In this document: positions 1,008 through 55,165 of the stretch, in pieces
How positions within the stretch are numbered: position 1 is the first letter of the stretch
Layout of the letters: every line of letters starts with the position of its first letter
Assembly: GCA_963663865.1 (NCBI GenBank)
Contig: OY760686.1
Coordinates: forward strand, 2,720,001-2,784,000
DNA from: Spirochaetota bacterium
GTDB lineage: Bacteria > Spirochaetota > UBA4802 > UBA5550
Length of the DNA stretch: 64,000 nucleotides
Reading direction: 5' to 3'
Notes under the pieces: model-generated
Database searches by the model: none
The model's input: only the letters and a program-made list of their open reading frames with translations
Told to the model about the DNA's origin: nothing
Position numbers and translations under genes: made by a program

Positions 1008-1176
1008 GTACAGTTCGCTTTCAATTTTCACAAAATTAGTAATTATTTCTCAGCCGTGGTACTCTTTGGAACAGTATCAAAACTGTTGATGGGCATATTG
1101 ACACCATGCACCAATCATATGCTGGTTCTGTTGGAATAATTACTGAAATAAATACAATTATTTGCGGAGGTTTCCC

Positions 1177-2662
1177 ATGTTCACTAAAAACATCAAGGGA
1201 AGGAAGGAAGGAAGGAAGGAAGGAAGGAAAATTTATAACCTGCTCGTGTAACCCACAACTTGTTTTTATGCTTTTCATTATTCTTCTCACATCGTGCTGG
1301 GACTCAGCAATCAGTTCAAAATCTTCAAGCGGTGCCGTAATCAGCGGCAATCTTGTTATTGGCCACAATCAGAAAGTAACGTTTAATGTGAAAGAGATGG
1401 ACACTAACCGCAGAGCAGCACTATCCCGATGCCGTGCCGCCGGTGATGAAGACCAGCTGACCTTCGAAGAAGCCCTATCCGAGGCTTATGATGAAGCAAT
1501 TACTGAAATTTTATCAAAAATCACAGATGAAAAAGAAAGGGCTGAATTCCTTGAAAATGGGACACTTGAAGCTGATGTTTCTGTGGGGATGGAGTTAACT
1601 GAAGAAGAAATGAAATCCGTTACGAGATCAGCTGATGGAACTGAAACAATTGACAACAACTTCTACAAAAGCTATCAAATTCACGGCAAAATGACCGATT
1701 ACCTCGGAGAGGTTTTTGGAGACACTTCGCTGGAAAAAACACAAATGAGCGAACTTGTCACGGAAGAATTCTACAACAACATTGATGAAACGGTAAAGGC
1801 CTCTGAACTCGCAAATTTTTACATTGCCTCAATGGATTATGACAGGGTACTGAATCTCGCTTCTTTCTGCGGCCTGACAATAGACGAAAAATACTTCAGC
1901 GAATTATGCGGAGAGATACAGGCGCTTTCAGAGACAGCGGACGAAGCGGAAGAAGCCTCCGATACAGCAGAAGCAAGGGGAGCAGCCCGCAGCGGTGAAG
2001 GAGGCGGTTCATGCCCGTCATGGTTTATACCTTCGAGCAGGGGCGGCAAGATCAAGGATGGAACGGTGCTGCTTGAGCGCGGCGGGAATAAATTTCTACA
2101 GTGGACTGGTACCTACACTCACGCCGGGATGTTTTCGCAGGCTGAATTTGAAGAATCCTGGGATGGACAACCATATCAAAAAAGCTATCAATCAGCAAAA
2201 TGCATTCAGACAGCAACTGAACCGAGAGCATGCCTGCAGGCGCTCAACAAGTTCGGAGGTGCAAGTAAATACGCAGGGCTTCTTCCCAAAAAGTGGTCAA
2301 ACTCCAAAGCTATTGCGGCCGGTCAATACAATGAGACTACATTCAACTGTTCTCAAAGAAACGGGAAAGGTGCAGACTACTGCTGCCCGTGGTGGGAGTC
2401 TTTCATGTTCTGGAAGGACACAAGCCACAACCTCAAGTCTTCAAACGCGTACTGTTCAAAAGTCGCGTACACAGGCTGGAAGAAGCAGGGAATCAACGTT
2501 GACGGCAATACAAGACTCGGGAACCTGATTCATCCTTACGAGATAATGGCCAGCTCAAAAGACCGTTACATCAGGATCGCTACAATAAAATGGTTTTTCG
2601 GAAAGATAACTATCAGGAAAAAAACATACAGTGCTAAAACAAATGTAATATTCGAAGAATAA
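1177..2662 (+). CDS. Lipoprotein with C-terminal permuted NlpC/P60 (YiiX/YebB-like) peptidase domain; frameshifted relative to its RBS-led start by the (GGAA)8 tract (ORF track gives 1106..2662)
   Basis: GGAGG at 1166-1170 and ATG at 1177; hydrophobic stretch plus lipobox LFIILLTSC; His-before-Cys motifs DGTVLL..YTHAGMF and AYCSKVAYTGWKKQGINVD..IHPYEI. Confidence 0.7.
1198..1229 (+). repeat. Tetranucleotide simple sequence repeat (GGAA)8
   Basis: Eight perfect GGAA units counted directly, starting 21 nt after the first base of the RBS-preceded ATG at 1177. Confidence 0.97.
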
Positions 2663-2670
2663 ACCTTTAT

Positions 2671-2703
2671 TGGTTTCCGGCCCCTGATGGGGCCCGGAAA
2701 CCA
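2671..2703 (+). other. Intergenic GC-rich hairpin (possible terminator or mRNA processing/stability element)
   Basis: TGGTTTCCGGCCCC-TGAT-GGGGCCCGGAAACCA with one bulge, followed by only a short T run. Confidence 0.5.
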
Positions 2704-2721
2704 TTTAACATGGAGAAAATA

Positions 2722-3792
2722 ATGAAATACATATACATATTTTATCTGACTGTCCTTGCGGCCATGTCTTCGTGCTCGTGCGGATGTTCAAACGATATCA
2801 ACTTCACTTATCCAAAATCATTCGAGCCTGTTACAGTTGATAGAAATACAATTTTTCTGTACCTCCCTGATTTCATGGGCCCATATGTCTTTGACACTAA
2901 ATCAAAAAAATGCATATACAAATATGATTTCACCGGATACTCTTTTGTTTCGAATATTGAACAGTTTTCTGACTATATATTTATAATGCTTAACGAAGAT
3001 GATGTCGATAGACAGGTAACCGTCAGCAAACTTATTCAAATTACCATTTCTACGGGAAAGGTTAAGGAAATTCCATTCTACGACGACATGCCATCAACCA
3101 TTGAAGTGATTGACAATAAGCTCTGGATTGACAGCGCCTATACCGACATGTACCCCAGAAAAATTCAGATCTATGATCCGGCAACTGGTGAGTATAATTA
3201 CATGAGTATTCCTCACCGTTTTACTGGTCAACCCGGGGGAAGAGTAGAAGGAGTCTTCTATACAAGCGTAGCGGCATCAGAACACGCACCTATTCTTGAC
3301 TGTTCTACCGGCGATACAATTGATACAATAGGCATATTCGGAGATACACTCTCTTCATTTCGTCAGACTTATCCTATTTTCTGCAGAGACCTCGGAAACA
3401 GCAACAGCGCTTATTTAGGTTTTTTATCGCATCACGCAACAGATGAGTCAAAAAATAAATACCCACTATTTAAGGTGGATTCACTGTCAAATAAAGAGTT
3501 CACACTACTGATGAATGGGCTTACCAGTGAAACAGGATCATACAGATATGCCCTTGAATATAACGACTACATCTATGTATTTTCTGTTGGAATGACACTG
3601 GGTGCCCCCTGCAGATTGTTCAAGTTTGATACAACAAACTACGAACTCGTTTATAAGATGGATGTTCCTGACATTGCCAGTTATATGAAATTCATCGACA
3701 ACACATTCTGGTTTGAAAAATCAGACCTGAAAAATGTATATTCAATAGACATCGAAACCCTGACAATCACAGAACATAAGGTCGATTTTTAA
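2722..3792 (+). CDS. Lipoprotein of unknown function, beta-rich (propeller-like), paralog 1
   Basis: GGAG RBS then ATG at 2722; signal MKYIYIFYLTVLAAMSSC; clearly similar along its length to 3903..4979. Confidence 0.75.
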   Translation: MKYIYIFYLTVLAAMSSCSCGCSNDINFTYPKSFEPVTVDRNTIFLYLPDFMGPYVFDTKSKKCIYKYDFTGYSFVSNIEQFSDYIFIMLNEDDVDRQVTVSKLIQITISTGKVKEIPFYDDMPSTIEVIDNKLWIDSAYTDMYPRKIQIYDPATGEYNYMSIPHRFTGQPGGRVEGVFYTSVAASEHAPILDCSTGDTIDTIGIFGDTLSSFRQTYPIFCRDLGNSNSAYLGFLSHHATDESKNKYPLFKVDSLSNKEFTLLMNGLTSETGSYRYALEYNDYIYVFSVGMTLGAPCRLFKFDTTNYELVYKMDVPDIASYMKFIDNTFWFEKSDLKNVYSIDIETLTITEHKVDF

Positions 3793-3814
3793 TCGTTGTT
3801 ATCATGAAAAACTC

Positions 3815-3881
3815 AACTGAACAGGTTGACTCATAAAGCATATAGTGTAAAGGAAGCATGGTTCGACAGCGGGGCTTGAGA
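3815..3881 (+). repeat. 67-bp direct repeat, copy 1
   Basis: AACTGAACAGGTT-nnn-TCATAAAGCATATAG-nnnnn-AGGAAGCATGGTTCGACAGCGGGGCTTGAGA, also present at 4958-5024. Confidence 0.9.
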
Positions 3882-3902
3882 TACTTCCTCATGGAGAAAA
3901 TA

Positions 3903-4979
3903 ATGAAATACATGTACATATTTTATCTGACTATCCTTGCGGCCATGTCTTCGTGCTCATGCGGATGCTCTGAGGATATAAGATTCACATATCCAAAATA
4001 CTTTGAGCCATTAAAGGTAAATGAAAACACTGCTTTTTTTTCACTTCCCGGTTTCAAAGGTATTTTCTCATTCAACACCGATACAAAGAAGATTCTTTAT
4101 AAATACGGTTTTACCGGATACTCTGAGATATCATATTATCAATTTACCTCCAATAATGAATTTATATTCATTATAATTGATGAAAATGACAACAACAGGG
4201 AGGTTACAGTAAGCAAGATCATTCAGATAACCGTCTCAACCGGAGAAGTAAAGGAGGTGCCCTTCTATGATGATATGCCTTCATTTATCGAGATGATTGA
4301 CGGCAAGCTCTGGGTTGACAGCGCTTACACCGATATATATCCGAGAAAAGTTCAGATATATGATCCGTTAACTGGTGAGATTAATTATATGAACATTCCA
4401 CACCGTTTTACAGGTCAGCCGGCAGGCCATGTCGAAGAGAATTACTACACGAGCGTATCCGCATCGGGTCACGAACCGCTGCTCAACTGCAGTACAGGTG
4501 AAATGGTTGACACTGTTTCAATATTCGGGGAATACCTTTCAAAGTACAGCTCATCATATCCTAAATTCTGCAGCGATCTGAACAACAAATCAAGCGCCTA
4601 TCTCGGATTCTATACATATAATACAACTAAAACAAACAACTTCCCGCTTTTTAAAATCGATTCGATTGACAGGAAAGAATTTAAACTGATTATAAACAGC
4701 CAGCTTACCAATACTGGAAGATTTTATTCTGCTTGTGAGCTTAACGGCTATCTCTATCTTGTATCATATACTGAATACACAGTAAAAAATCTGCTAATAA
4801 AGATGAACACAGAGAACTACAGCATTGAGTCAACTACCGTTCTTCCTGAAATGGGTGGGGGCTTTCAGTTCAAAAATAACAAATTCTGGTATCGAAAAAC
4901 TGATTCAACAAATGTCTACTCGGTTGATCCGGAAACCCTTGTAATTACAGAACATGTAACTGAACAGGTTAGTTCATAA
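3903..4979 (+). CDS. Lipoprotein of unknown function, beta-rich (propeller-like), paralog 2
   Basis: 5' DNA nearly identical to paralog 1; shared blocks PFYDDMPS, LWxDSAYTDxYPRKxQIYDP, IPHRFTGQP. Confidence 0.75.
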   Translation: MKYMYIFYLTILAAMSSCSCGCSEDIRFTYPKYFEPLKVNENTAFFSLPGFKGIFSFNTDTKKILYKYGFTGYSEISYYQFTSNNEFIFIIIDENDNNREVTVSKIIQITVSTGEVKEVPFYDDMPSFIEMIDGKLWVDSAYTDIYPRKVQIYDPLTGEINYMNIPHRFTGQPAGHVEENYYTSVSASGHEPLLNCSTGEMVDTVSIFGEYLSKYSSSYPKFCSDLNNKSSAYLGFYTYNTTKTNNFPLFKIDSIDRKEFKLIINSQLTNTGRFYSACELNGYLYLVSYTEYTVKNLLIKMNTENYSIESTTVLPEMGGGFQFKNNKFWYRKTDSTNVYSVDPETLVITEHVTEQVSS

Positions 4980-5024
4980 AGCATATAGCTAATAGGAAGC
5001 ATGGTTCGACAGCGGGGCTTGAGA
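4958..5024 (+). repeat. 67-bp direct repeat, copy 2 (overlaps the 3' end of paralog 2)
   Basis: Matches 3815-3881 except in two short variable patches. Confidence 0.9.
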
Positions 5025-5238
5025 CAACTATGATATGGTTGAACGATAGCCCAATTATACAGTATGAACAAGCTGGAATAATATGATTCTATTCCAACGT
5101 CATATCTGAAACATAAATGGTCAACAGTATGAACAGGAACAAGCGGTTGTCGAAACGTGTGCAATCCTGTCCAGTTCAAGACCTTAAAAGGCCTTGAACT
5201 GCTCTATTGTTAACTTTACATCTATAAATATTTACGGT

Positions 5239-6168
5239 ATGAAAATGAGATTAAAAAGACTAATATACAAACTGATCCTCTTGGTGCTTCTTATAACAGC
5301 ATCACAAAATCATGGATGGGCAAAAAAGGAATCCGAATACCCGGTAAAGATAGAAACATCTCTGAACTCAAGTCTCGTGTATGGATCCCTGGGCGAATAC
5401 GTATATTCAGGAAGCCGTACCGTCAGCCGCCTCGACTGGGACATGCAGGGCATAGTGTTTACCGGATTCAGTATAAACGCGGAGATATCAAAGTCCTGCA
5501 TCATTCACGCTGAATTTAATTATGGGATTAGCGATGACGCGGGGCGGATCAGGGATTACGACTGGGAAAACTCAGACAGCCTTACAAACTACTCCAACCA
5601 CAGATGTATTCTCGAAAAAGCCTTTACCTTCAAAGCATCAGCCGGATACAGGCTTAGTCTGTCAGACAGCATAACTTTAACGCCAGACTTATTTATTTCA
5701 GCTTTCGATATAAAGCTTACGGCGCTTGACGGTTACTACCAGTATCCTCCTGATTCGGCGCCCATCGACCTGTACGGCACTGTTATCTCCTACCGGCAGC
5801 GTTATCTGATTCAGGGCATAGGAATCACCGCGGCTCTCTCTCTTAAAAAAATCAAGGTGAGTGCGGAACTTGCATATGGTTTCTGTGGGAAATGCAGGGC
5901 TGTTGACAGCCATCATCTTAGAGATACTGATTTTTACGACAGCTTCGATTCCGTCAAAATGTTTTCCGCGCGTGCAGCGGCGCAATTCAGCTTAACAGAA
6001 CATCACTTTGCCGGCCTATTCACCGGCCTTATTTCAATGCCGGAAACAAAAGGTGATGAATATCACATCGACACATCGAGCGGCGCCAGGTCCAACACGC
6101 TCCAGGACTCGGCAGGCGTTAAACTGAAACTGTATCAAACGGGCATCTACGCCGGCCTCAAAATCTGA
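5239..6168 (+). CDS. Omptin-family outer membrane protease
   Basis: Signal peptide; SRLDW, DYDW (Asp pair), NYSNH and DSHHLR (Asp-x-His) motifs; alternating beta-strand pattern. Confidence 0.8.
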   Translation: MKMRLKRLIYKLILLVLLITASQNHGWAKKESEYPVKIETSLNSSLVYGSLGEYVYSGSRTVSRLDWDMQGIVFTGFSINAEISKSCIIHAEFNYGISDDAGRIRDYDWENSDSLTNYSNHRCILEKAFTFKASAGYRLSLSDSITLTPDLFISAFDIKLTALDGYYQYPPDSAPIDLYGTVISYRQRYLIQGIGITAALSLKKIKVSAELAYGFCGKCRAVDSHHLRDTDFYDSFDSVKMFSARAAAQFSLTEHHFAGLFTGLISMPETKGDEYHIDTSSGARSNTLQDSAGVKLKLYQTGIYAGLKI

Positions 6169-6209: not shown

Positions 6210-7610
6210 TTAAAAGTAAATGTCCCTCTTCCCTTCGTCTATCTCGCTTAAGACACCGGACATTTTCTCCCTGAGAGGGTCCTTATCCACCCCTGAAAGA
6301 AGTTCCTGGATCAGTTTCTCGCCTTTTTCCCTGGTGGAGGGCGACGCGAAGTCGTTCAAATACTCTTTAAAGGTAAAAACCGCGTTTGGCATGCAGTACT
6401 GTTTTATGAGCCCCGGCTTAGCCAGGTCCATGAAATCATGTCCAACGCGGCCCTTGCGGTAGCAGCCGGTGCAGAATGACGGAATGTAACCCTGTTCGGT
6501 TATGGCGGATATGACCTCATCGAGGTTACGGTGATCGCCGAGTGAAAACTGGCTTCCGGTCTTTCCTTCGCCCTCGGCGTAGGCCCCAGGGTTTGTTCGT
6601 GAGCCGGCCGATATCTGGCTAATGCCGTACTGGAAAAGCTCGGAGCGCATCTGCTCGTTTTCGCGTGTGCTGAGGATGATTCCGGTATAGGGCAGCGCGA
6701 TGCGTATTATTGCCACGATCTTTTTAAAGTCTTCGTCACTGACAGGGTATGGGATACTGCTTGTGAGCGGAGCATTGTCGGCGGGCTCAATCCTCGGGAC
6801 GCTTATCGTGTGAGGCCCGCAGTTGTACGTCTTCTCAAGATGGGCCGCGTGCTCCATAAGGGCGAGAACCTCGAATCGGTAATCGGCCAATCCAAACAGC
6901 ACACCCAGTCCGACATCGTCAATTCCCGCCTGCATGGCCCTGTCCATTACAGTGAGGCGGTAATCGTAGTCGGCCTTTGGCGTCCCCTTCGGATGATACT
7001 TTTTATAAAGCTCAGCATCGTATGTTTCCTGGAAACAGACATAGGTCCCTATTTTCTCGCTGTGAATCTTCCTGAAATCTTCGACTTCCATGGGCGCGAG
7101 CTCAACATTGATGCGTCTGATATAGTGGGCGTTTTCACGCACCGCGTACGTTGTCCTGATAGCCTCACACATATAGTCCGTATCGTTCTCGGGAGTCTCC
7201 CCGCAGATGAGAAGCGCCCTCTTGTGGCCGTCGCGCAGAAGTATCCGCACCTCCTGCTCTATCTCGCTCATGCTGAGGATCTTGCGTTTAAGCTCTCTGT
7301 TTGAAGTACGGAACGCGCAGTAAACGCAGTTGTTCACGCACTTGTTTCCTGTGTATATCGGCGCGAAAAGGACGAGCCTTTTTCCGTAGATGTTCTCCTT
7401 CACCTGATGTGCAGCGTTCATTATTCTGGATATCTGAGAGCTGTCCTCAACACGCAGAAGCGCGGCAACGTCCTCAAAGCCAAGCCCCTTCATCCTGAGC
7501 GAACGATTTAGTATTTCGTCAAGCTCAGCCGGTGTCGGCGGAGCGCCCTCTACGAGACTGTAAAGCTTATCCCTGTCTATAAATGTCTTTTCACGCGTTG
7601 ATGTGTTCAT
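6210..7610 (-). CDS. hydG: [FeFe]-hydrogenase H-cluster maturation radical SAM enzyme HydG
   Basis: CxxxCxxC (CVNNCVYC), FQETY, GPHTISVPRIEPA, and C-terminal CxxC-x22-C (CTGCYRKGR...YCMPN), which distinguishes HydG from ThiH. Confidence 0.93.
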   Translation of the reverse strand: MNTSTREKTFIDRDKLYSLVEGAPPTPAELDEILNRSLRMKGLGFEDVAALLRVEDSSQISRIMNAAHQVKENIYGKRLVLFAPIYTGNKCVNNCVYCAFRTSNRELKRKILSMSEIEQEVRILLRDGHKRALLICGETPENDTDYMCEAIRTTYAVRENAHYIRRINVELAPMEVEDFRKIHSEKIGTYVCFQETYDAELYKKYHPKGTPKADYDYRLTVMDRAMQAGIDDVGLGVLFGLADYRFEVLALMEHAAHLEKTYNCGPHTISVPRIEPADNAPLTSSIPYPVSDEDFKKIVAIIRIALPYTGIILSTRENEQMRSELFQYGISQISAGSRTNPGAYAEGEGKTGSQFSLGDHRNLDEVISAITEQGYIPSFCTGCYRKGRVGHDFMDLAKPGLIKQYCMPNAVFTFKEYLNDFASPSTREKGEKLIQELLSGVDKDPLREKMSGVLSEIDEGKRDIYF

Positions 7611-14396: not shown

Positions 14397-15410
14397 TCAA
14401 GACTTTTGGCTCGTCTGAAGATTAATGCCTAACATCCCTGCTGCCCTCCTGACAAGCTCGGGATTATCTTCAGAGGTGGTCTTATGCAGGGCCTCTTCGC
14501 GGCTCATCGCACCGGCCCTTACTATGCCGGCATTTTCCCAGGCGTAAGGATGAAAACCGAACTCCCTTCGGTGCAGATGATTAGCCAGGGCGTTCAGAGT
14601 GCAGTTAGTGGAATTTGGATCCGTGTCGTCAGGCTTCTCCCAGCCGGCCCCGGTGATCTCTCTGAGAATATCGTCTTCTGAATAATCCATGAATGCGAGA
14701 GGATGAACATTGAGAGGCCACCTTTCAGGAGGTGCGCTCATCTCTTCCTCAGAGAGAAAGAGCCCGGCTGTCCGTGGTCCGCACTTTGAGACCAGCGGAT
14801 CGCGTATGCTTCTGTTCGAAAAGCTCTGAATGCCGGGACCCGTCTTCATAATTGATGAAGAAATAGGGGCCTGACCCGGCGACCATCCATAGGCTGCAAG
14901 CGGGATGCCGTACCTGATAGCCGCTCCGGTAACCAGAGACTTCACCATACCAATGCAGGCAGTACATATTGAACTGGCTCTGTCAAGTGTCTTGGGACTG
15001 AATATACCGCCCCCGGCGGCAGCCCGGAAAATGTCCGAAATCAGGGGAAAGGGCGGCCTGATTATCCACGAAACAGCGCCGGCCCTGTCAGTCATCTTCT
15101 TTATGTTATCAAGTGACTTACTGGAGAGGAAGCCGTTGTCAAATGTCAGCGCCAGAACACTCAGCCCGAACCTTTCAGTCAGCTTCATGAGGGTGTAAGT
15201 AGAGTCCTTGCCTCCGCTGTAGGCTATAACAGCGTCAAAACGCTGTTTCCCCCTGACTTCATCGGCAATTCTTTCGAACCTTTCGAGATACTCTTCCTTT
15301 TTGGCTTTATCGGGCTGTTGAGTATTCCGGCAGTAGTTGCACACTCCCTCTTTGTCGAATTCTATTCCGGGGAAGGTTTCAGGAAGAACGCATTTTTTAC
15401 AGTAAATCAT
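14397..15410 (-). CDS. PP-loop (N-type ATP pyrophosphatase) protein resembling N-acetyl-sugar amidotransferases (WbpG-like)
   Basis: N-terminal CKKC...GVCNYC, AYSGGKDS PP-loop, ICTAC, STNC. Confidence 0.7.
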   Translation of the reverse strand: MIYCKKCVLPETFPGIEFDKEGVCNYCRNTQQPDKAKKEEYLERFERIADEVRGKQRFDAVIAYSGGKDSTYTLMKLTERFGLSVLALTFDNGFLSSKSLDNIKKMTDRAGAVSWIIRPPFPLISDIFRAAAGGGIFSPKTLDRASSICTACIGMVKSLVTGAAIRYGIPLAAYGWSPGQAPISSSIMKTGPGIQSFSNRSIRDPLVSKCGPRTAGLFLSEEEMSAPPERWPLNVHPLAFMDYSEDDILREITGAGWEKPDDTDPNSTNCTLNALANHLHRREFGFHPYAWENAGIVRAGAMSREEALHKTTSEDNPELVRRAAGMLGINLQTSQKS

Positions 15411-15414
15411 GACA

Positions 15415-15666
15415 TTACCCCTCAACGCCCTTCCGCCTCAGAAAAGCGGCAATCCGGTCTATACTGTCAAGGTTCTCAGGGACAAGCTCGTCATCCTCAA
15501 CGGTTATGGAGAACGTCTCCTCAAGAAACATCACAAGCTCAAGAACCCCCGTCGAATCAATGACGCCGCTCTCAATAAGGGAATCTTCCGGAGCAAGACC
15601 GGTATCGGTTCTCCCCGCGATAAAGTTTTCTCTTATAAACTTAAGGATATTTTCGCTAACAGACAT
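15415..15666 (-). CDS. Acyl/aminoacyl carrier protein
   Basis: Acidic 83-aa protein with GVIDSTGVLELV phosphopantetheine-Ser motif and ELVPENLDS. Confidence 0.88.
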   Translation of the reverse strand: MSVSENILKFIRENFIAGRTDTGLAPEDSLIESGVIDSTGVLELVMFLEETFSITVEDDELVPENLDSIDRIAAFLRRKGVEG

Positions 15667-15687
15667 GAATTCCTCCGCAAATTGTAT

Positions 15688-17643
15688 TCAGATTTTATCA
15701 GAACGCGCAGCAACCGCTGCGCCTCTTGCCGCACCCGAGGCATGCATATAATAAAGCATCTGTGTTGATGATATCGCGGCCAGGGCCATATCGTCTCTCT
15801 CGCTTATGAGAGCATCGGGGTTTTCAGCCTTTCGAAGCAGATTGATCGCCGCAGCCTCCTCGAAAACACCCGCCGACCTGATATTCTCCTCTGAGCATGA
15901 TTCCCGGGCGCTCCCATCAAGGCCCGCAACAACGCCCGCTATCGGAGCCCTGTAGGGCTGCTTGCTTCTTGAACAAACCTCATCGGGAAGCATGCCCTCG
16001 AACGCCCTTTTTAAGATGTATTTTTCATTCAGAACGTTCAGCTTATATCGCGGGGGGATGGATGCGGCGTACTCGATTACCCTGTGGTCAAGGAAGGGAA
16101 AGCGGCCCTCGACCGAATGCCCCATAAGCACCCGGTCTCCCTGCGAAGACAGAAGATAACCCGGCAGAAAGAGTTTGCTTTCTATGTACTGCGCCCTGCA
16201 TAGCGGATTCCACCTGCTGATGTCAGGGCTTATATATGAGTCAAGCCTTTCCCGCTGAGCAGTATCACTGAGCAGCTCCCTTATTTCAGGCCTTAGAAAG
16301 TGCTTTATACTCGATGTATTCTTCCATCTTATCGTGTGGGAATAATAGGGATTGTCAGTGTCCTCAAGCCCATATTTGAAGAAAGACTGCCAGAAGCGGA
16401 AAACCCTCGGATCCCGCGTGATGTACGGATAAAGCGTCGAGAGAAGCTTGGGCCTCCTGTGCGATGACGGCACCTTCGCCCAGAACCGCCTTATGCAGTC
16501 CTCCTTGAAGATATTGTAGCCCCCGAAAATCTCATCGGCGCCCTCGCCCGTAAGAACTACTTTGAGGCCGTTTTCTCTCACCAGACCGGAGAGTAGGTAT
16601 AGCGGCGCGGGCGCGCTCCTGGTCAAAGGCCTCTCACCAAACCACACCGCCTCTTCAAACGCCCTTGCGGTGTCCTGCAGTGAGGCGCGAACCGAGCTGT
16701 GCTCAGTTTTCAGCATACCGGCCATGAGCTCCTGATATGAAGATTCGTCATATTCTGAATCATCAAAGGTCACGGAAAAAGTCCTGAGCCCGTTCCCCTT
16801 GATTCGCCCGGCAATCATAGATATTATGGATGAATCCAGACCCCCGCTCAGATATGAGGCAACCGGAACATCAGCCCTCAGCCTGACAGACACAGCATCG
16901 TAGATCAGCTCATTCAGCCCCGCAATGTAATTCTCGACAGGCGCGTCATCGTAGTTACCATCATCCGGAAATGTGAAATCCCAGTAACGGCGAGAGGCGG
17001 TTCCCCTGGGACTGACGGTGATGTGTCCTCCGGGCTCTACCTCCTGAACCACTTTATAAGGTGTCATGGGGGGGATATTGACCCACATTGTCAGTATATC
17101 CTCAAGCCCCTGTTCCGAAAATTCAGGACTGACGCTGCCCTCCGCGAAGAGAGCCTTCATCTCGGAAGCAAACACAATACCTTCAGGGACCTGAGCAAAA
17201 AAAAGCGGGACAATACCGACCCTGTCCCTTACGAGATGCAGCTCCCTTCTCATCGAATCCCACAGGGCAATCGCGAACTGTCCGTTCAGCTTATCCATAA
17301 AATAAGGTCCGTACTCCTCAAAGAGATGCACAATGACCTCAGTGTCGGATTTTGTTTTAAATACATGCCCCTTTTGAACAAGAAAGTCCCTGAGCTCAAT
17401 GTAGTTGAATATCTCTCCGTTGAAGACGACACAGACGGTTCCGTCCTCATTGTAAATCGGCTGGGTGCCGCCGCTGATATCTATAATTGAGAGGCGGCAG
17501 CTCCCCAGAGCAAGAGGGCCGTTTACGTGAAAGCCCGTCTCATCGGGTCCTCTATGCCTGAGTGACGCTATCATCGTCTCAACGGCTCCGTTTTGAGCCG
17601 GAGCCATTTTTCTATAGTTGTATATTCCTGCAATTCCGCACAT
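15688..17643 (-). CDS. asnB: Asparagine synthase (glutamine-hydrolysing) family amidotransferase
   Basis: MCGIAG (Cys1), HRGPD, RLSIID, NGEIFN, YLSGGLDSS, TGEGADE, EGRFPFLD. Confidence 0.9.
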   Translation of the reverse strand: MCGIAGIYNYRKMAPAQNGAVETMIASLRHRGPDETGFHVNGPLALGSCRLSIIDISGGTQPIYNEDGTVCVVFNGEIFNYIELRDFLVQKGHVFKTKSDTEVIVHLFEEYGPYFMDKLNGQFAIALWDSMRRELHLVRDRVGIVPLFFAQVPEGIVFASEMKALFAEGSVSPEFSEQGLEDILTMWVNIPPMTPYKVVQEVEPGGHITVSPRGTASRRYWDFTFPDDGNYDDAPVENYIAGLNELIYDAVSVRLRADVPVASYLSGGLDSSIISMIAGRIKGNGLRTFSVTFDDSEYDESSYQELMAGMLKTEHSSVRASLQDTARAFEEAVWFGERPLTRSAPAPLYLLSGLVRENGLKVVLTGEGADEIFGGYNIFKEDCIRRFWAKVPSSHRRPKLLSTLYPYITRDPRVFRFWQSFFKYGLEDTDNPYYSHTIRWKNTSSIKHFLRPEIRELLSDTAQRERLDSYISPDISRWNPLCRAQYIESKLFLPGYLLSSQGDRVLMGHSVEGRFPFLDHRVIEYAASIPPRYKLNVLNEKYILKRAFEGMLPDEVCSRSKQPYRAPIAGVVAGLDGSARESCSEENIRSAGVFEEAAAINLLRKAENPDALISERDDMALAAISSTQMLYYMHASGAARGAAVAARSDKI

Positions 17644-17805
17644 AAGCATCCACTTTACGGGTATTAAACCGGCTTTTCTTTCGGCTCATCGTCCTGAGAC
17701 AGGGCATGATTACACGCGAATTTCTTTCACCTCCCGGCCGGCATGTCAAGCTATCTTTATAAAAGAGCACTTTTCAGGATAATTTCACTTTACTCTGAAA
17801 TGTTC

Positions 17806-20303: not shown

Positions 20304-21563
20304 TTGATCATGCTCAGTACAAATAATCTCGACGCTGAAGACCTGCTACTTCTGCAGCTGTTCTCACAACGGGCTGATGAATCGGCTGTCAGCACAATTG
20401 TCCATTCAGAGCGCTTCAGCGTGAAGCGTTTCATGTCCCTTGCCCGAAGACACCTTCTGGACGGGGAAGCGTCTGACGCTCTTTTAAGGCTGAAAATAAG
20501 GGATGGACTGCCTTTGAGCATTGAGAAGGCGTGCCTCAGAGAGGCCGCCCTTGCATCCGCAGCGGCCGTAAAGCTCAGGTACGAAACCCTTTCCGTTATG
20601 AGATTACTCACCGACAATGAATTAGAGTGCGCTGTCATGAAGGGGACGTCGCTTGACTTCTCCGGATTCCGCCGCGGGCGCGACATCGACATACTCATCA
20701 AACCTGAAGTCCTTGAAAGGGCCTCAGAACTTCTTTCTTCCGGAGGATTCAGCTCCGCTGGAGGACGCAGCAACCTCATGGTTACGAAATCCGAGATTGA
20801 CGATTTGCCCGGGCAGATGAAGTGGAACTGTCAGTTTCAGTTTGAACACCGGGAAGCAGGATATCTCGTCGAGCTTCACACCGGCCTATTCGAAAAATCA
20901 AGAATATACTCTGAGAGCCTGAAAAGCCTTCACAGCCATGAGAGCATGTTCCTCAAAGGAAGGGTGTTCGACGATGAATTGGGGACATGGCGTATGAACA
21001 ACGCGGATATGCTCTTTCTGATGTGCATGCATTCAGCCGTCAAAAGGCCCCCCTCTTCAGATGGATTTCTGCTGAGAAACACTGTTGATATTACAAGATT
21101 GGTTAATAAGCCATTTGACATGGAACGCTTCCTTGAGACCGTCAGGAAAACCGGAACTGCCTGCTATATCTTCTTTTCGCTCAAGCTTACCTCCATGCTT
21201 TTTAAAGGAAGCATTGATGAAAAATTACTCAGCTCCTTGAGAGAGATGACCCCCAGGCGCTGTACCGCAGCTAATTTTTTTCATTTCCGCTCATTCAAAA
21301 ACCTCTCCGGCAATTCGACCCTGTTCTCGAACATCTACCGGACACTGATTCCCCTCACCTCCGCCGCAGCTGGACCGGGAATGCTGAGAGCTCTTTTCCC
21401 TCCTCTCCTATTCCCGCGGCCTGTTGCTGTTTGCCAGGCCTTCAGATTAAGACTGTCAGGCATAACGCTCGCGGCCGGGTATCTGCTGTGGCCGCTGATG
21501 CTTCTTTGCAAGGGCGGCAAGCTTGTCTACAAAAAGCTCAATCATACAGGCAGGAGAAGCTGA
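20304..21563 (+). CDS. Uncharacterised nucleotidyltransferase family protein (NTP_transf_5-like)
   Basis: MKG...RRGRDIDILI (R..xDxD) and VELH motifs typical of the NTases found beside RRE/kinase cassettes. Confidence 0.75.
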   Translation: MIMLSTNNLDAEDLLLLQLFSQRADESAVSTIVHSERFSVKRFMSLARRHLLDGEASDALLRLKIRDGLPLSIEKACLREAALASAAAVKLRYETLSVMRLLTDNELECAVMKGTSLDFSGFRRGRDIDILIKPEVLERASELLSSGGFSSAGGRSNLMVTKSEIDDLPGQMKWNCQFQFEHREAGYLVELHTGLFEKSRIYSESLKSLHSHESMFLKGRVFDDELGTWRMNNADMLFLMCMHSAVKRPPSSDGFLLRNTVDITRLVNKPFDMERFLETVRKTGTACYIFFSLKLTSMLFKGSIDEKLLSSLREMTPRRCTAANFFHFRSFKNLSGNSTLFSNIYRTLIPLTSAAAGPGMLRALFPPLLFPRPVAVCQAFRLRLSGITLAAGYLLWPLMLLCKGGKLVYKKLNHTGRRS

Positions 21564-21566
21564 ACA

Positions 21567-22847
21567 GTGAACATAAATGAAAAAAGCGCTGAATGGCTTG
21601 AGATGGTCAGCGGAGGGCATCCGGTCGGCCCGGTGAAAATGGAGGTTCTTAGCGGGAGCATGCATCCGGCAATACGCGCTGGTGACACTGTAGTAATTGA
21701 CACCTCAGAGAACCGAAGACCGCGTATCGGTGAGATCGCTGTTTTTGCCGAAAAAAGACAACTGACCGCCCACAGGGTTCTATTCACCCTGCCCGGACGT
21801 ATATACCAAAAAGGTGATAGAAACAGCTTCGGAAGATTTTCTGCGACAAAAAATGTCGCGGGCGTCATCACTGGTATTATGAAGCCTGACGGAACCCTGC
21901 TTGAACTTGAAGATTCCGGCCGTATTGCGGCCTTCAGAGAAACGCTGAAACTGCTTTATTCCCTTGCGACAGAACCGGCGAGGAAGCTCAAAAGACGCCT
22001 CTTCCCGCGTCCTCTGGTCATTCAGTGCGGCGGCATCAGGTTAGGGCTCATTGTACCGGGAAAGCAGCTTCTTTCTTTTATGTCTGATTATTACAGAGGA
22101 TTTATCGTGCCGGAAAACCCAACATTCACACTCAAAATCAGTATCCGCAGAAGAAGCGGATCATTTGAAATCCCGGACTCTCTTTTCAACACCAAGACAG
22201 TAAACTCCAGCACCTTCAGCGCGGGCGGACTTGTTGATGGAAAGCTCTGCCGGGACGGCAAAGGCGCCGTTATTTCGGTCCCTGCCGGGCTTTTTGTGAA
22301 ACCGGTCGTAAGGGTATTCGAACAAATACTGTATCAGGCGTACTTCAACGCGGCGGCATTGTCTGATGAAGAGTCCTTCCTTATACACGCCTGCGGGGTC
22401 GAAGACGATGGAAAAGGCTATCTCTTCTGCGGGCCTTCCGGTTCAGGAAAATCCACAACAGCTGCCCTTTCAGTACAGACCGGGAAAAAGGTGCTGAACG
22501 ACGAAATATGCCTCATAAGGCGGTTAGACGGCCGCCTTATGCTGTCTTCAACACCGTTCAACGGCCTTTTCAGAGACAAGTATCTTGCTGAAGTCCCTCT
22601 AAAGGCCGTCTTTTTAATCGCTCATGGAGCAACAAACATGATCGAAGATATAGCTGAAAGCCACGCGGTAAAATCATTAGCTCGTGAAATTGTTCCGCCC
22701 ATTGGGCTCACGGAGAAAATCAGGCCGGCAACCTTTACCGGTATGCTTGATACGGCACAGAAGCTGACCAGAGAGATTCCGGTTAAGCGGCTGCGCTTCA
22801 GGCCGGACGCTTCGTTCTGGAAAACAATATCTGAACACTTTTCATAA
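21567..22847 (+). CDS. Fusion of an S24/S26 peptidase domain and an HPr-kinase-related P-loop kinase
   Basis: N-terminal SGSMHPAIRAGD..HRV..KGD; C-terminal IHACGV..GYLFCGPSGSGKST..LNDE..STPF. Confidence 0.75.
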   Translation: MNINEKSAEWLEMVSGGHPVGPVKMEVLSGSMHPAIRAGDTVVIDTSENRRPRIGEIAVFAEKRQLTAHRVLFTLPGRIYQKGDRNSFGRFSATKNVAGVITGIMKPDGTLLELEDSGRIAAFRETLKLLYSLATEPARKLKRRLFPRPLVIQCGGIRLGLIVPGKQLLSFMSDYYRGFIVPENPTFTLKISIRRRSGSFEIPDSLFNTKTVNSSTFSAGGLVDGKLCRDGKGAVISVPAGLFVKPVVRVFEQILYQAYFNAAALSDEESFLIHACGVEDDGKGYLFCGPSGSGKSTTAALSVQTGKKVLNDEICLIRRLDGRLMLSSTPFNGLFRDKYLAEVPLKAVFLIAHGATNMIEDIAESHAVKSLAREIVPPIGLTEKIRPATFTGMLDTAQKLTREIPVKRLRFRPDASFWKTISEHFS

Positions 22848-22860
22848 GGAGACAACAGCA

Positions 22861-23136
22861 ATGGAAATCAGTAACAAAAAGAGACCTCATAGTGTGGAAG
22901 GAATTACCGTAAAAGAAATCGGCGGCGAAACAATAATAGTTACTGACGAAGGGAACTGGATGCACACCCTCGACACAACCGCATCATTTATCTGGAAGCT
23001 CATCGAAGAGGGACGTGAATCTACTGATATTGCCCTCCTGGTGGCTGATAGATACAGCATCCCCGAGGAAAGAGCGTCATCTGACGTCCACGAATTTCTG
23101 GAGGAACTGCGCAAGAAGGGCCTCATTCATTTCTGA
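22861..23136 (+). CDS. PqqD-family RiPP recognition element (RRE) protein
   Basis: 91 aa with EIGGETIIV, HTLDTTASFIWKLI, RYSI...DVHEFLEELRKKGLI. Confidence 0.88.
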   Translation: MEISNKKRPHSVEGITVKEIGGETIIVTDEGNWMHTLDTTASFIWKLIEEGRESTDIALLVADRYSIPEERASSDVHEFLEELRKKGLIHF

Positions 23137-23169
23137 ACAGGCCCTGTATCTCAGTCTCTTAACGGCAGG

Positions 23170-23337
23170 CTACCTTCTTCCGAAGAAAGAAAAGAGCCAG
23201 CCCCAGAAACCGCCCATTCCGCCCCAGCCATGTCCATGATGACCGCCGTTTCCGCTGCCGCCCTGACCTCCGTAGCACCCGAAAACACCTATCGAAACCC
23301 TCTCTGAAAGAATTGACGGCTTACTATACTCAAGCAT
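23170..23337 (-). CDS. Candidate RiPP precursor peptide, 55 aa (YxxPxI leader, Gly-rich core, aromatic/hydrophobic tail ending RR)
   Basis: GGGAGAG RBS before ATG 23337; MLEYSKPSILSERVSIGVFGCYGGQGGSGNGGHHGHGWGGMGGFWGWLFSFFGRR; adjacent to the PqqD gene. Confidence 0.72.
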   Translation of the reverse strand: MLEYSKPSILSERVSIGVFGCYGGQGGSGNGGHHGHGWGGMGGFWGWLFSFFGRR

Positions 23338-23453
23338 ATCGCTCTCCCTGTGAAATAATATGGCATAACCCTTCACAACCTGCCAGATTCATCTTAAGTA
23401 CAATTTCGGGGGAAATCAAAATTTTTTTGTGCTTTTTTAAAAAAAAGCGATAG

Positions 23454-23608
23454 AATCCCCGCCGGTGGCGGGGATTTATTGTATCGATCTCGTTTCGTTC
23501 AACATTAACTCATGGATTCCCCGCCCCCAAGGTCTGGGTATGTTGCTTATAATCATATCCCACAATACTGAAAGATCTCCCCGCCTCAGGCGGGGAGATC
23601 TTTCAGTA
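23454..23608. repeat. Cluster of related CCCCGCC-nnn-GGCGGGG palindromes (REP-like or IS200/IS605-end-like)
   Basis: 10-bp-arm hairpin at 23454-23476, a half copy near 23514-23528, and a perfect 20-bp-arm hairpin at 23566-23608. Confidence 0.7.
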
Positions 23609-23705
23609 CAAAGGAATTACTCTTTTTTCATCTCAGCTTCAATATTTGCTGGCTTTTATTATTTTAATCTTAAAATATATCATAAAACACTATAGAACGG
23701 CTGCA

Positions 23706-24626
23706 ATGAATAATACCCTTAAAGTAGATAACATATCAAAGTCATTCCGAAGGATATCGCTTTTCGCTTCAGCAAGGATACCGGTTCACGCCCTGAAAGA
23801 AGTGAGCTTCCAATGCGGGGGAGGCTCAACCCTGTGTGTTCTCGGGCCGAACGGCGCCGGCAAGACAACCCTGATGAAGATTCTCGCCGGGCTCATATTC
23901 CCCGACTCTGGAAAAGTCCTGTTCAGCGGCAAACACGGTTCAGTCCGTTCCGGACTGGTGAGTCCCAACGACAGGTCTTTCTACTGGCGCCTCACCGGCA
24001 GGCAGAACCTCGACTTTTTCGCCTCGCTGCACGGTTACCGGGGCAGGGCAAGGAATAGTCAGGTAAGCGCGCTTCTTGAGCGCTGCGGCCTCGCAGATGA
24101 AGCTGACCGTCCCTTCAGGCTCTACTCTGCCGGCATGAAGCAGAAGCTCATGATCGCCCGTGCGCTTCTCGGCAACCCGCAGGCGCTTCTTCTTGATGAA
24201 CCAACGTCTCACCTTGACCCTGCCGCGAAGAAGAGCATTCATTCGCTCATTAAGTCCTTCACGGACAGGATTATCATTCTTTCAACTCACGACCTCACTG
24301 AGGCAGGCGCCCTGTCAGACGAAATAATTCTGCTGAACGGAGGAAGCGTTATCGCCAGGGGCAATGTAGATTCACTGCGCCTGTCCGAAGCAAAGGTTTA
24401 CACCATCAGGTTCGAGTCTGATCCGGTTCAGGGGTGGGATAATGGCCTTCTCTCAAAACCGGCCCGCAGCGCCGGCGGCGAACACCGCTTCATAATCCAT
24501 AAGGACGAATCCGCCTCCTGCATACTATCCAGAGCGCTGAATGCCGGAGGCCGGATAATTTCCTGCGGATTTGAAACCGAATCTCTTGAGGACATCTTCA
24601 CCAGAATCACTGAGGGTAAATCATGA
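23706..24626 (+). CDS. ABC-2 type exporter ATP-binding subunit
   Basis: GPNGAGKTT, YSAGMKQ, LLLDEP, STH. Confidence 0.92.
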   Translation: MNNTLKVDNISKSFRRISLFASARIPVHALKEVSFQCGGGSTLCVLGPNGAGKTTLMKILAGLIFPDSGKVLFSGKHGSVRSGLVSPNDRSFYWRLTGRQNLDFFASLHGYRGRARNSQVSALLERCGLADEADRPFRLYSAGMKQKLMIARALLGNPQALLLDEPTSHLDPAAKKSIHSLIKSFTDRIIILSTHDLTEAGALSDEIILLNGGSVIARGNVDSLRLSEAKVYTIRFESDPVQGWDNGLLSKPARSAGGEHRFIIHKDESASCILSRALNAGGRIISCGFETESLEDIFTRITEGKS

Positions 24627-25423
24627 TATTTCTTGCTTTCGTTAAAAGGGACATTCTCACAGCGCTAAGTTATCCCTTAAACATTGCCCTGCAGCTGATC
24701 AAGGTAAGCATTACCCTCTTTCTGATTTACTTCATCAGCCGGACATTCAGCGGGAGTGTATCTCCGCACCTGACAAAGTACAGCGGTGACTATTTCGCCT
24801 ACGTGCTGATGGGAATATCTGTATCAAGCTTTGTCTTCGCCGGGCTGGACGCCTTTGCCTCATCTGTAAGAACAGCCCAGGTTGAGGGCACGCTCGAAGC
24901 GGTTTTGACAACGCCAGTATCAATATTCACGGTTCTGCTGGGCAACTCTCTCTGGACTTTCATCCTGGCTTTTGGAAGCTCCATTGCTCTTCTCGGCGCC
25001 GGAATGCTTTTTTTGGGCATTACGCTTTCCCTTACGTCAGCCCTGCTCTGTCTGGCAGTGCTGCTGCTCACCTTTCTTTCGTTTCTTTCGGTTGGAATGC
25101 TTTCAGCTTCCTTTATCATGGTATTCAAGCAGGGAAACCCGATCGGAATGATTTTCGGCACATCAAGCTATTTTCTGGGAAGCGTCCTCTTCCCCGCCGA
25201 GGTCCTTCCCGGTTTTCTGCAGCAGGCGGCAAAGCTGCTGCCAATGACATACGCCGTAAGGTCTCTGAGGGATATCGTTCTTGCTTCAGCGGCTCCGGGC
25301 GATGTTTTTCCGGTTATGCTCCAGCTGGCCCTTTTCATAATTATCCTTGCTCCCGCGGGGCTTCTTTCGTTCAGCTTTGCCGTGAAAAGGGCCAGGATAA
25401 ATGGAAGCCTTGTGCAATATTAA
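24623..25423 (+). CDS. ABC-2 type exporter permease
   Basis: About 6 TM segments, EGTLEAVLTTP, FPAEVLP..LPMTY; overlaps the ATPase stop. Confidence 0.88.
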   Translation: MIFLAFVKRDILTALSYPLNIALQLIKVSITLFLIYFISRTFSGSVSPHLTKYSGDYFAYVLMGISVSSFVFAGLDAFASSVRTAQVEGTLEAVLTTPVSIFTVLLGNSLWTFILAFGSSIALLGAGMLFLGITLSLTSALLCLAVLLLTFLSFLSVGMLSASFIMVFKQGNPIGMIFGTSSYFLGSVLFPAEVLPGFLQQAAKLLPMTYAVRSLRDIVLASAAPGDVFPVMLQLALFIIILAPAGLLSFSFAVKRARINGSLVQY

Positions 25424-27367: not shown

Positions 27368-28957
27368 ATGAAAACCCACAACTATGTGTCTGATTTCACA
27401 TTGAGGGACATTGTCATTATACTCTTCAGATACAAGATGCTGATTATATCAACCATCTTCATCATTATGGGACTGACCCTGCTGGGCCTGAAAATGAATA
27501 CGCCGATGTACGAAGCAAGCGTGAAAATTCTAATTAAAGGTCAGTCGGTATCAGCAGCGGAAACATATCAGAGCCTGGGTTCATTTCGTATTCACAACAC
27601 TCAGACCGAGATTGTAAATTCCACCCCGGTTCTGCGCAGGACAGTCATCGCCCACAAACTGCACGAGAGACCCCTTGATTACGAAAAGCAGTTCTGTTCA
27701 CCTATAAAAGCGCCTCTTGTCGAATTTATAGCTAAAAAGGATTTCCAGACGCTTGAAGAGGAAAAGCTGTCGCCTGAGGACAAAACAGAACGCCTTATAA
27801 GTATAGCGGTAAATAAGCTGAGAAAAAACCTCAGCACATCATTAATACCAAATTCCGACGTCTTTGTGATTAATGTATTAGACTACAGCCCTGAAGAAGC
27901 CGTAAGAATCGCCAATATTCTGAGCCGGTCATACGCGATTTTCGACCTGCAGTCACAGCTCGCAGAGTTGAACATGCGGTACGGAGTACTGCACCCTTCA
28001 GTACTTCAGCTCAAAGACAACATCGAAAACATGACCGAGAACCTTTCCGGAGACAGGCTTCCCGACATTGAGGCTATTGGAACTGCAAGCGTAAAGGTTA
28101 TTGAACAGGCTTCTTCAAACAGTCTGCCTGTAGGAAAATCTTCAAAGCTTGTCTTTATTATGGCTTTTTTCGCGGCCTGTTTTGTATCAATAGCTCTTGC
28201 ACTTCTATTTAATTCATTTAACAAAAAGTTCAGAAGTCCCCAGGACATAGTAACCACCCTCAACATACCCGTAATCGGTTCTGTCCCGAAGAAAAAACTC
28301 AAGGATGGGCTGCTTCTCTCCCACGATTCCAAACCGGGCATCTACTACTCCTTCTGTGAAGACCTTGCCGAGCAGGTCTACATTTTCATGAAAACACAGA
28401 ACATGAAGAAGATCATCATAAACTCCATAACCCGTCTGAAGAGCACTCAGGCCGTCAGTTCAAATATAGCATTCTGCATCTCTCAGCTCATGGGTCACAG
28501 AGTGCTGATTGTTGACCTCAATCTCAGCGCTCCTGTCTTATCAGTCATTCACCATACTGGAAAGGTGCCCTCCATTGACGAGCTGAAAGAATCTGAAAGC
28601 ATAGATGAGTACATTCAGCAGATTTATCCGGGGCTTGACGTCATTCCCTGCTCAAAAAGCCAGACGAGAGCATCGGCATTTTTAAAGCAGACAAGCCTTG
28701 GTGAAAAGATAGCCGCCGTTCAGGACAGATATGACGCGGTCTTTTTCGACTGTGTAAACATCACCAGCAGCGCTGATATTATTCTGATATCCGAATTCGC
28801 TGATGCCGTAATGCTTGTAATAAATGAAGGAAGGGATAAAAAGCAGGTGGTTAAGAAAACGGCGGGCATGCTCTCGGGAAACAACGTGAAACTGGTGGGA
28901 GGCGTACTGAACAACAGGACATTCCCTGTGCCAGGGTTGTTTTACAGGTATTTTTAA
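27368..28957 (+). CDS. Polysaccharide co-polymerase (Wzc/GumC-like) with degenerate tyrosine-kinase domain
   Basis: Two TMs, PMYEAS, LNIPVIGSVP, RVLIVDLNL, GGVLNN; Walker A region reads NSITRLKSTQ. Confidence 0.82.
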   Translation: MKTHNYVSDFTLRDIVIILFRYKMLIISTIFIIMGLTLLGLKMNTPMYEASVKILIKGQSVSAAETYQSLGSFRIHNTQTEIVNSTPVLRRTVIAHKLHERPLDYEKQFCSPIKAPLVEFIAKKDFQTLEEEKLSPEDKTERLISIAVNKLRKNLSTSLIPNSDVFVINVLDYSPEEAVRIANILSRSYAIFDLQSQLAELNMRYGVLHPSVLQLKDNIENMTENLSGDRLPDIEAIGTASVKVIEQASSNSLPVGKSSKLVFIMAFFAACFVSIALALLFNSFNKKFRSPQDIVTTLNIPVIGSVPKKKLKDGLLLSHDSKPGIYYSFCEDLAEQVYIFMKTQNMKKIIINSITRLKSTQAVSSNIAFCISQLMGHRVLIVDLNLSAPVLSVIHHTGKVPSIDELKESESIDEYIQQIYPGLDVIPCSKSQTRASAFLKQTSLGEKIAAVQDRYDAVFFDCVNITSSADIILISEFADAVMLVINEGRDKKQVVKKTAGMLSGNNVKLVGGVLNNRTFPVPGLFYRYF

Positions 28958-55090: not shown

Positions 55091-55165
55091 TGTAACCCCT
55101 TCAGGCATTTTTCAGGAATATTGAGCACCCAATAAATGCGGTCAAGATAAAAAGCCGGTGCACAA

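Follow-up and report, generated by a model that had tools for sequence, protein, structure and literature searches.

A cyclase-free RiPP cassette of a Spirochaetota bacterium with a conserved tyrosine in the phospho-acceptor register of linear polyphosphorylated peptides

Linear polyphosphorylated peptides (LPP) of Paenibacillus alginolyticus, encoded by lppA/K/B/S/D/N (Popov et al. 2026, PMC13381572), are the closest described relatives of the gene cassette analysed here, which occupies positions 20,304 to 25,423 of a 64,000-nucleotide stretch (the window) of Spirochaetota bacterium contig OY760686.1. Both belong to the field of peptides that are ribosomally synthesized and modified post-translationally (RiPPs). 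The LPP gene set has a SipW-type peptidase, a RiPP recognition element (RRE), a kinase resembling HprK, an NTP_transf_5 nucleotidyltransferase (NTase) and an ABC exporter, lacks a cyclase, and often lies in polysaccharide loci. The roles of kinase, peptidase and RRE were shown experimentally: up to four phosphates are placed on core Ser3 and none on the variants S3A, S3T and S3Y; leader cleavage occurs after Thr-1, depends on the RRE and is independent of core residues 1-5; LppS requires its equivalents of the catalytic Ser, His and Asp; and deletion of lppN had no effect. The Tyr of the YxxP leader motif is residue -16 and the acceptor is residue +3, so that the two are 18 apart. The precursor motif is Px9Fx[T/A] (YxxPxVLxHQxIxFETxxS), and the class was called restricted to Bacillota (PMC13381572).

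The window cassette consists of five plus-strand genes and one short minus-strand open reading frame (ORF) of 55 amino acids. All six were found at their coordinates in an ORF check, with matching domains, as the first-pass annotation of this DNA had described. With LPP the cassette shares an archaeal-type SpI peptidase (Ser/His/Asp), a stand-alone RRE, a kinase resembling HprK, a PF14907 NTase and an ABC exporter, as well as the absence of a cyclase, a YxxP leader, a variable core, a frequent setting in polysaccharide loci and, 18 positions beyond the YxxP Tyr, a conserved residue with a hydroxyl group. We are confident that it is a RiPP cassette working like LPP. The distinct RiPP class proposed in the first-pass annotation was thus right in kind, but neither the class nor its gene composition is new, as the same gene set in polysaccharide loci has been published and tested as LPP (PMC13381572). 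The new part is a precursor substrate with Tyr.

The differences from LPP are several. The leader ends in GVFG in the window family and in FET in LPP, the acceptor position is Tyr instead of Ser, and the window exporter is a two-gene ABC-2 system (ABC_tran and ABC2_membrane) whereas that of LPP is MsbA-like, a type found in only some relatives of the window cassette. In the window the peptidase is fused to the kinase, the precursor gene of the family mostly lies on the opposite strand, and the family has an optional radical S-adenosylmethionine (SAM) branch. The LPP motif Px9Fx[T/A] is found in 0 of 46 distinct precursors, the window's included. Because leader motif, residue at the Ser3 position and exporter type all differ, the window cassette is regarded as a variant and not as a member of LPP. 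Where record titles of relatives name a group, it is Spirochaetota, Krumholzibacteriota, Fibrobacteraceae or Latescibacterota, in contrast to the Bacillota-only distribution given for LPP, and in six LPP supplementary files the strings 'Spirochaet', 'GVFG', 'Fibrobacter' and 'Krumholz' have 0 occurrences (PMC13381572).

A total of 101 loci were analysed, namely 35 from genomes and 64 from metagenomes (kinase alignment search), one stretch from a relative, G007, and the window; many are short contigs and a few are duplicates. Three further stretches from a sample of the phylum appeared to be repeats of loci in the set and were left out of the counts. A small ORF homologous to the 55-aa ORF was found in 48 loci, giving 46 distinct sequences, and in 42 of the 48 it lies on the strand opposite to the kinase. 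The residue 18 positions after the YxxP Tyr, which is the register of phospho-Ser3 in LPP, is Tyr in 41 of the 46 distinct precursors and Ser/Thr in one. The first-pass annotation had pointed to the Ser phosphorylation of related lasso clusters; Ser as the acceptor is not supported here, the conserved hydroxyl residue at this register being Tyr. Four of the five exceptions are shifted by one residue, so that 45/46 have a Tyr within one residue of +18; elsewhere in the cores Tyr makes up only 9 of 1,154 residues. Among precursors chosen by a pattern without a Tyr requirement the count is 32/35. Precursors located far from the enzymes carry the Tyr in 9/9 (counted by eye), distant paralogous cassettes in 2/2 and new database sequences in 45/56, these three sets having been found with profiles that include the Tyr position. 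The Tyr is kept both with a radical SAM enzyme (23/27) and without one (18/19), and hence it is not present for that enzyme. A mere protease-site role is disfavoured since core residues 1-5 of LPP are dispensable for cleavage.

From this conservation we consider it on balance probable that the kinase phosphorylates the conserved core Tyr22 of the 55-aa precursor, whose codon is at 23272..23274 on the minus strand. Several points weigh against it. In one of the 46 precursors, positions +17 to +19 are all without Tyr, and six of the 56 database sequences lack it at both +18 and +19. The window core contains two Ser, and Ser outnumbers every other residue at +17 (12/46) and +20 (14/46). The loci were gathered with a kinase motif, and the presence of the kinase is therefore built into the sample, as is, in part, the invariance of its RxFEQxLYQ helix. 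The HprK-like RiPP kinases in the cited work are Ser-specific (PMC13381572, PMC8498205). The modelled NTase has the fold of enzymes that put a nucleoside monophosphate (NMP) on hydroxyls, and it could modify the Tyr instead. The cleavage site can be placed only to within one residue, and every enzymatic step of the window cassette is assigned by analogy.

The abundance of Ser next to the Tyr bears on a second explanation, in which the Tyr is a docking residue for peptidase or kinase and the phosphate goes to a Ser/Thr close by or at the terminus, in the manner of paeninodin or LPP. Besides Ser being most frequent at +17 and +20, 12/46 cores end in Ser, and leader position +7 is Ser/Thr in 42/46. 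However, no Ser/Thr position of the core is conserved, and cores without any Ser or Thr occur in 3 of the 46 precursors and 12 of the 56 database sequences. The window core itself ends in Arg-Arg, and leader position +7, which is Val or Cys in several precursors, would be cut off. We judge the docking role unlikely.

Phosphorylation of Tyr22 would depend on the kinase domain at 22005..22847 (+), which is of the HprK/ScmC P-loop type and LppK-like, and belongs to PF27840 (ScmC) as matched on homologues. Its catalytic residues His274, Walker A Lys295 and Asp312-Glu313 are invariant (His, Lys, Asp, Glu) in 80/80 sequences, and a helix ahead of the catalytic His reads R-x-F-E-Q-x-L-Y-Q in the family. 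The structure model has a mean predicted local distance difference test (pLDDT) score of 95.6, with the folds of PEP carboxykinase (PEPCK; Z 13.2 over 232 residues) and HprK/P (Z 11.5 over 117). Comparison by eye with the LppK sequence as printed showed that the catalytic motifs including Asp-Glu are common to both and that the helix before the catalytic His of LppK does not carry R-x-F-E-Q-x-L-Y-Q. The rejection of S3Y by LppK, taken together with this helix difference, is consistent with a different acceptor pocket in the window kinase family. In the literature searched, which mostly did not cover subscription journals, no Tyr-phosphorylated RiPP was found, nor was the combination of HprK, RRE, radical SAM and signal peptidase.

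The kinase domain is the C-terminal part of a fusion encoded in one 426-aa frame at 21567-22847 (+), in which an archaeal-type signal peptidase domain precedes the HprK/ScmC-like domain. All model matches of this protein, including those to S26, HprK-related and ScmC models, are below the curated cut-offs. The N-terminal domain (21567..22004, +) is a S26 peptidase of the SipW/SEC11 type (Ser-His-Asp; TIGR02228, E 8e-9) and is the predicted leader peptidase, LppS-like. The best PDB match of the family profile is human SEC11A (E 2e-10). The S26 assignment held, with an intact catalytic set: S31 is found in 64/64, H69 in 63/64 and D84 in 64/64 aligned sequences. The highest 19-residue hydropathy of the fusion is 1.55 and is located outside the peptidase domain, and the peptidase is predicted to have no membrane anchor. 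Same-frame fusion is uncommon, being seen in the window and in L021 and L061, of which the latter two are one identical cassette; two database proteins span the entire fusion, with 96% and 36% identity. In a complex prediction, peptidase domain, RRE and precursor reached a score of 0.72, which was matched by a control with the peptidase replaced, and so the prediction counts neither for nor against binding.

The stand-alone RRE of the PqqD family is encoded at 22861..23136 (+; 91 aa; PF05402, 66 bits, E 5e-18). Its family profile matches TbiB1, PbaB1 (9x90) and LppB (9x8z; E 6e-13).

The LppN/PsmN-like NTP_transf_5 NTase (20304..21563, +; 419 aa) scores 81 bits against PF14907 (cut-off 31; E 1e-22). 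D127 and D129 are present in 21 of 22 aligned rows (one gap) and E190 in 21 of 22, leaving the Pol-beta-type triad intact, and by sequence the cassette enzymes as a whole look intact. The NTase model (pLDDT 89) is Pol-beta-like, its best folds being MenT1 (Z 12.9), ANT(2'') (Z 11.4) and LnuA (Z 10.6). In a sequence search the family profile gave zero matches in the PDB.

These folds would suit an arrangement in which the NTase, and not the kinase, modifies the Tyr hydroxyl by NMP or sugar-phosphate transfer, the kinase acting on another group or on an added moiety. Pol-beta-type enzymes such as GlnE and GlnD nucleotidylylate Tyr, which also counts in its favour. A full or divergent NTase is found beside many loci, and in five genomes picked for absence or divergence near the kinase both peptidase and NTase were located elsewhere in 5/5 (NTase strong in 2, weak in 3). 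Against this, the same register in LPP is the kinase site and deletion of lppN left phosphorylation unchanged (PMC13381572), and the pseudomycoidin NTase acts on a residue that is already phosphorylated (PMC8498205). Direct modification of the Tyr by the NTase is in our view improbable.

If instead the kinase acts on Tyr22, the following order of events is envisaged. As in LPP, the RRE would bind the YSKP leader and present the peptide, and the kinase would use ATP to place one or more phosphates on the residue at +18. The soluble Ser-His-Asp peptidase would cut near GVFG. A cut after Gly20 is more likely than one after Phe19, the exact LPP register, because a small P1 residue and Val at P3 fit the signal-peptidase rule. 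Unmodified, the core would have a monoisotopic mass of 3669.6 Da if it starts at Cys21 and of 3726.6 Da if it starts at Gly20. The NTase would then decorate the phosphate of the peptide with an NMP or a sugar; this is the least certain step, and we put it forward tentatively and with some doubt. Finally, and also more tentatively than the first steps, the ABC-2 pair would export the linear peptide, by analogy with LPP. The wider proposal, which we find quite possible though short of probable, is that of a first RiPP class based on phosphotyrosine, in which a kinase of the HprK/PEPCK fold has switched from Ser to Tyr, the NTase adds a nucleotide or sugar to the aryl phosphate, and the same phosphotyrosine-headed peptide is converted, in roughly half of the lineages, to a form with cross-linked Cys by an exchangeable radical SAM module. 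If Tyr phosphorylation holds true, RiPP chemistry would gain phosphotyrosine and the bacterial tyrosine kinases a new fold, and phosphopeptides could usefully be made with an enzyme that, guided by a leader, places phosphotyrosine on peptides of widely differing sequence. The family also extends the LPP logic well beyond Bacillota, supplies naturally occurring pairs of Ser and Tyr at one register on which kinase specificity can be studied, and offers a second way into the function of the PF14907 enzyme.

The precursor gene (23170..23337, -) is convergent with the RRE gene and divergent from the ABC genes, and a Shine-Dalgarno-like AGGGAG (23344..23349, -) lies 6 nt before its ATG. The leader comprises residues 1-19 or 1-20, contains YSKP and ends in GVFG; the core begins (G)-C-Y-G and continues with a Gly/His-rich linker and a Trp/Phe/Arg tail, with zero Asp/Glu. 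When a leader profile built without the window sequence was run over the 90,903 frames of the genome, it picked this ORF alone (E 2e-7, against 0.54 for the runner-up), and the conserved leader and core residues are encoded by varied synonymous codons, so that the ORF is not due to chance. The family leader can be written as YxxPx[ILVM]x[ST]Ex[IVL]x[IVL]GV[FY]G, after which come x-Y-G and a core of variable sequence. The precursors match none of the NCBIfam models.

The first-pass annotation had taken the small ORF as the precursor and had asked for similar ORFs in homologous cassettes. Such ORFs were found: of 57 loci whose sequence runs on for at least 800 bases beyond the final enzyme gene, 39 have such a homologous ORF next to the enzymes and 18 have none, and five of five genomes tested from loci without a precursor carry one elsewhere, in three cases beside an MsbA-type exporter. 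The conserved precursor was thus borne out. Separately, L101 has a second short ORF (6902-7021, -) with a different YxxP leader type and three tail Cys near the Tyr-type precursor. Two distant paralogous cassettes, L136:7125-12277 and L137:7812-12520, have a kinase, an MsbA-type exporter as in LPP, a divergent NTase, an RRE and a Tyr-type precursor. A peptidase was detected in L136 and not in L137, and L136 therefore has the full LPP gene set together with a Tyr substrate.

Across the 101 loci we found RRE in 84, peptidase in 74, radical SAM/SPASM in 40, ABC ATPase in 32, permease in 28 and full NTase in 28. The absence of a radical SAM enzyme, given in the first-pass annotation as a feature of the class, was consequently dropped, and the enzyme is a variable add-on of the precursor family. 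Where radical SAM is present, a C-terminal Cys pair, either CC or CxC and mostly preceded by PxF, closes 23/27 cores. Where it is absent, this ending is found in 0/19, and like the window peptide these cores have tails with much Trp and/or Arg/Lys. Fisher's test gives p 4e-9 for radical SAM versus Cys pair, a value that overstates the association because kin are not independent. When the radical SAM state was mapped on a quick kinase tree, about 10 changes of state were seen; only four well-supported independent contrasts remain, of which none runs the other way (p 0.125-0.25), and with four contrasts significance is out of reach. Two short contigs counted as lacking radical SAM may simply not show the gene. 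In relatives with a radical SAM/SPASM enzyme, this enzyme would cross-link the C-terminal Cys pair, the window version lacking both. Among cultured bacteria, Spirochaeta isovalerica has a precursor of this kind (WP_184745034.1). Six members of the uncharacterised radical SAM/SPASM family that is paired with PxFxxCC-ending precursors (e.g. L038:11125-12354 and L023:11124-12389) were tested, all of which were below NCBIfam cut-offs.

The family is tight but patchy. At E up to 1e-30 it has 177 representatives, within a superfamily of 7,907 at 1e-10, and strong matches occur in 6 of 401 genomes of the phylum sample, the window's genome counted. A single-protein search for relatives in 60 genomes gave one true orthologue (G007) and 24 others with only weak matches in the P-loop region (E 3e-5 to 9e-4), and against plasmids the kinase gave four weak partial matches.

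The window cassette is flanked by rmlA/C/D on one side and by wza/wzc/wzy-type genes on the other, and the first-pass annotation had proposed that the NDP-sugars of the locus are used. To examine co-conserved polysaccharide genes, as suggested there, the flanks of the 37 loci of at least 12 kb were scanned; 333 of their 342 ORFs entered the scan, each with its first 420 residues and with matches taken at E up to 1e-12, and nine repeats of sampled families were left out. Clear polysaccharide genes flank 10 of the 37 (L028, L031, L033, L037, L038, L044, L055, L065, L095 and L110, with L065 counted by family membership), and a lone ambiguous gene is present in three or four others. The polysaccharide link recurs, as it does in LPP, without being required; an obligatory link is rejected, and given these 10/37 loci the use of the NDP-sugars of the locus is unsupported. 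In LPP, deletion of lppN changed nothing.

These neighbours also bear on the explanation that the enzymes serve polysaccharide or protein modification, the small ORF not being their substrate. The position of the cassette within a large polysaccharide locus, and such genes beside the 10 long loci, would agree with it. Yet kinase, RRE, peptidase and YxxP precursor travel together over several phyla, mostly without polysaccharide genes, and the core type tracks the presence of radical SAM. We regard this explanation as very unlikely.

Other neighbours were recorded as well. Hydrogenase maturation (hyp) and CBS-domain genes adjoin the cassette upstream in five loci (L021, L022, L023, L025 and L057, the relative G007 included), whose gene order differs in radical SAM content. 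In the clade L046, L048, L050, L052, L054, L094 and L122, a divergent NTase match is found upstream of the peptidase gene in 6/7, and GH38 mannosidase and/or GH130 mannoside phosphorylase genes adjoin the cassette in the seven loci; these are a possible source of sugar-phosphate for the NTase. The precursor is elsewhere in the three genomes of this clade that were tested.

The cassette has further likeness to the lasso peptide clusters of paeninodin and pseudomycoidin (PMC8498205), with an HPr kinase homologue, an NTase, a discrete RRE and a [YW]xxP leader, and differs from them in having no cyclase, no B2 protease, no ring Asp/Glu and no C-terminal Ser. A lasso peptide could in principle be closed in trans by the AsnB at 15688-17649, considering the lasso-like YxxP leader, the RRE and an AsnB only 2.7 kb upstream that scores 230 bits against the lasso cyclase model. 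The cut-off of that model is 525, however, and the protein better matches glutamine-hydrolysing AsnB (489 against a cut-off of 267); it is of the ordinary glutamine-hydrolysing type, sits with an acyl carrier protein gene, and has homologues beside only two other loci, L037 and L108. The core contains no acidic ring residue, and the genome, a single contig that is 98% complete, contains no PF13471 lasso B2 protease. A lasso peptide is thus rejected for want of acidic ring residue, B2 and cyclase, closure in trans being extremely unlikely, and the cyclase-free cassette of the first-pass annotation stands.

SynChlorMet (TIGR04248-TIGR04251; PF27840 ScmC) resembles the family in that the window kinase falls in PF27840 and many relatives pair the kinase with PqqD and a radical SAM/SPASM enzyme. 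All Scm models are nevertheless far below their cut-offs (ScmC 28 against 125 bits, ScmD 21 against 100), and relatives carry one radical SAM and no ScmE/ScmF pair, six of them scoring at most 120 against 400. The window cassette has no radical SAM, and membership was rejected. The same holds for HPr-rel-A, which likewise has an HprK-related kinase and a PqqD-family protein, with 33 bits for TIGR04352 (cut-off 200) and 17 for TIGR04353 (cut-off 35).

The genome holds one RRE (PqqD), and the peptidase, kinase and NTase families are each represented once. No cognate radical SAM was found in it, the best score being 58 bits against about 450-500 for full-length family members; three SPASM proteins are present, none of which is the radical SAM of the family.

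The exporter is encoded by a DrrA-like ABC ATPase (23706..24626, +; longest ORF from 23646, first ATG at 23706; PF00005, with drrA as best NCBIfam model, below cut-off) and an ABC-2 permease (24623..25423, +; PF01061). Between the precursor and ABC genes are two related palindromes (23454-23476 and 23566-23608), one with perfect 21-nt arms. Their common core occurs at 7 places of the genome, four of which cluster near C1:1,423,395-1,423,758, and they therefore look like REP-type repeats.

The AsnB amidotransferase, the acyl carrier protein and a WbuX-like N-acetyl-sugar amidotransferase form a single run at 14397-17649 (-), and an AMP-forming ligase is at the far end of the polysaccharide locus (53516-55108, -); these genes probably serve a carrier-based polysaccharide decoration. 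The Wzc-like protein at 27368-28957 scores below the tyrosine autokinase cut-offs, and by eye it has a degenerate Walker A and no long C-terminal Tyr cluster; it may be inactive. Positions 1106-6168 of the window are lower in GC (38-44% against about 49%) and contain tandem paralogous lipoprotein-like genes at 2710-3792 and 3858-4979.

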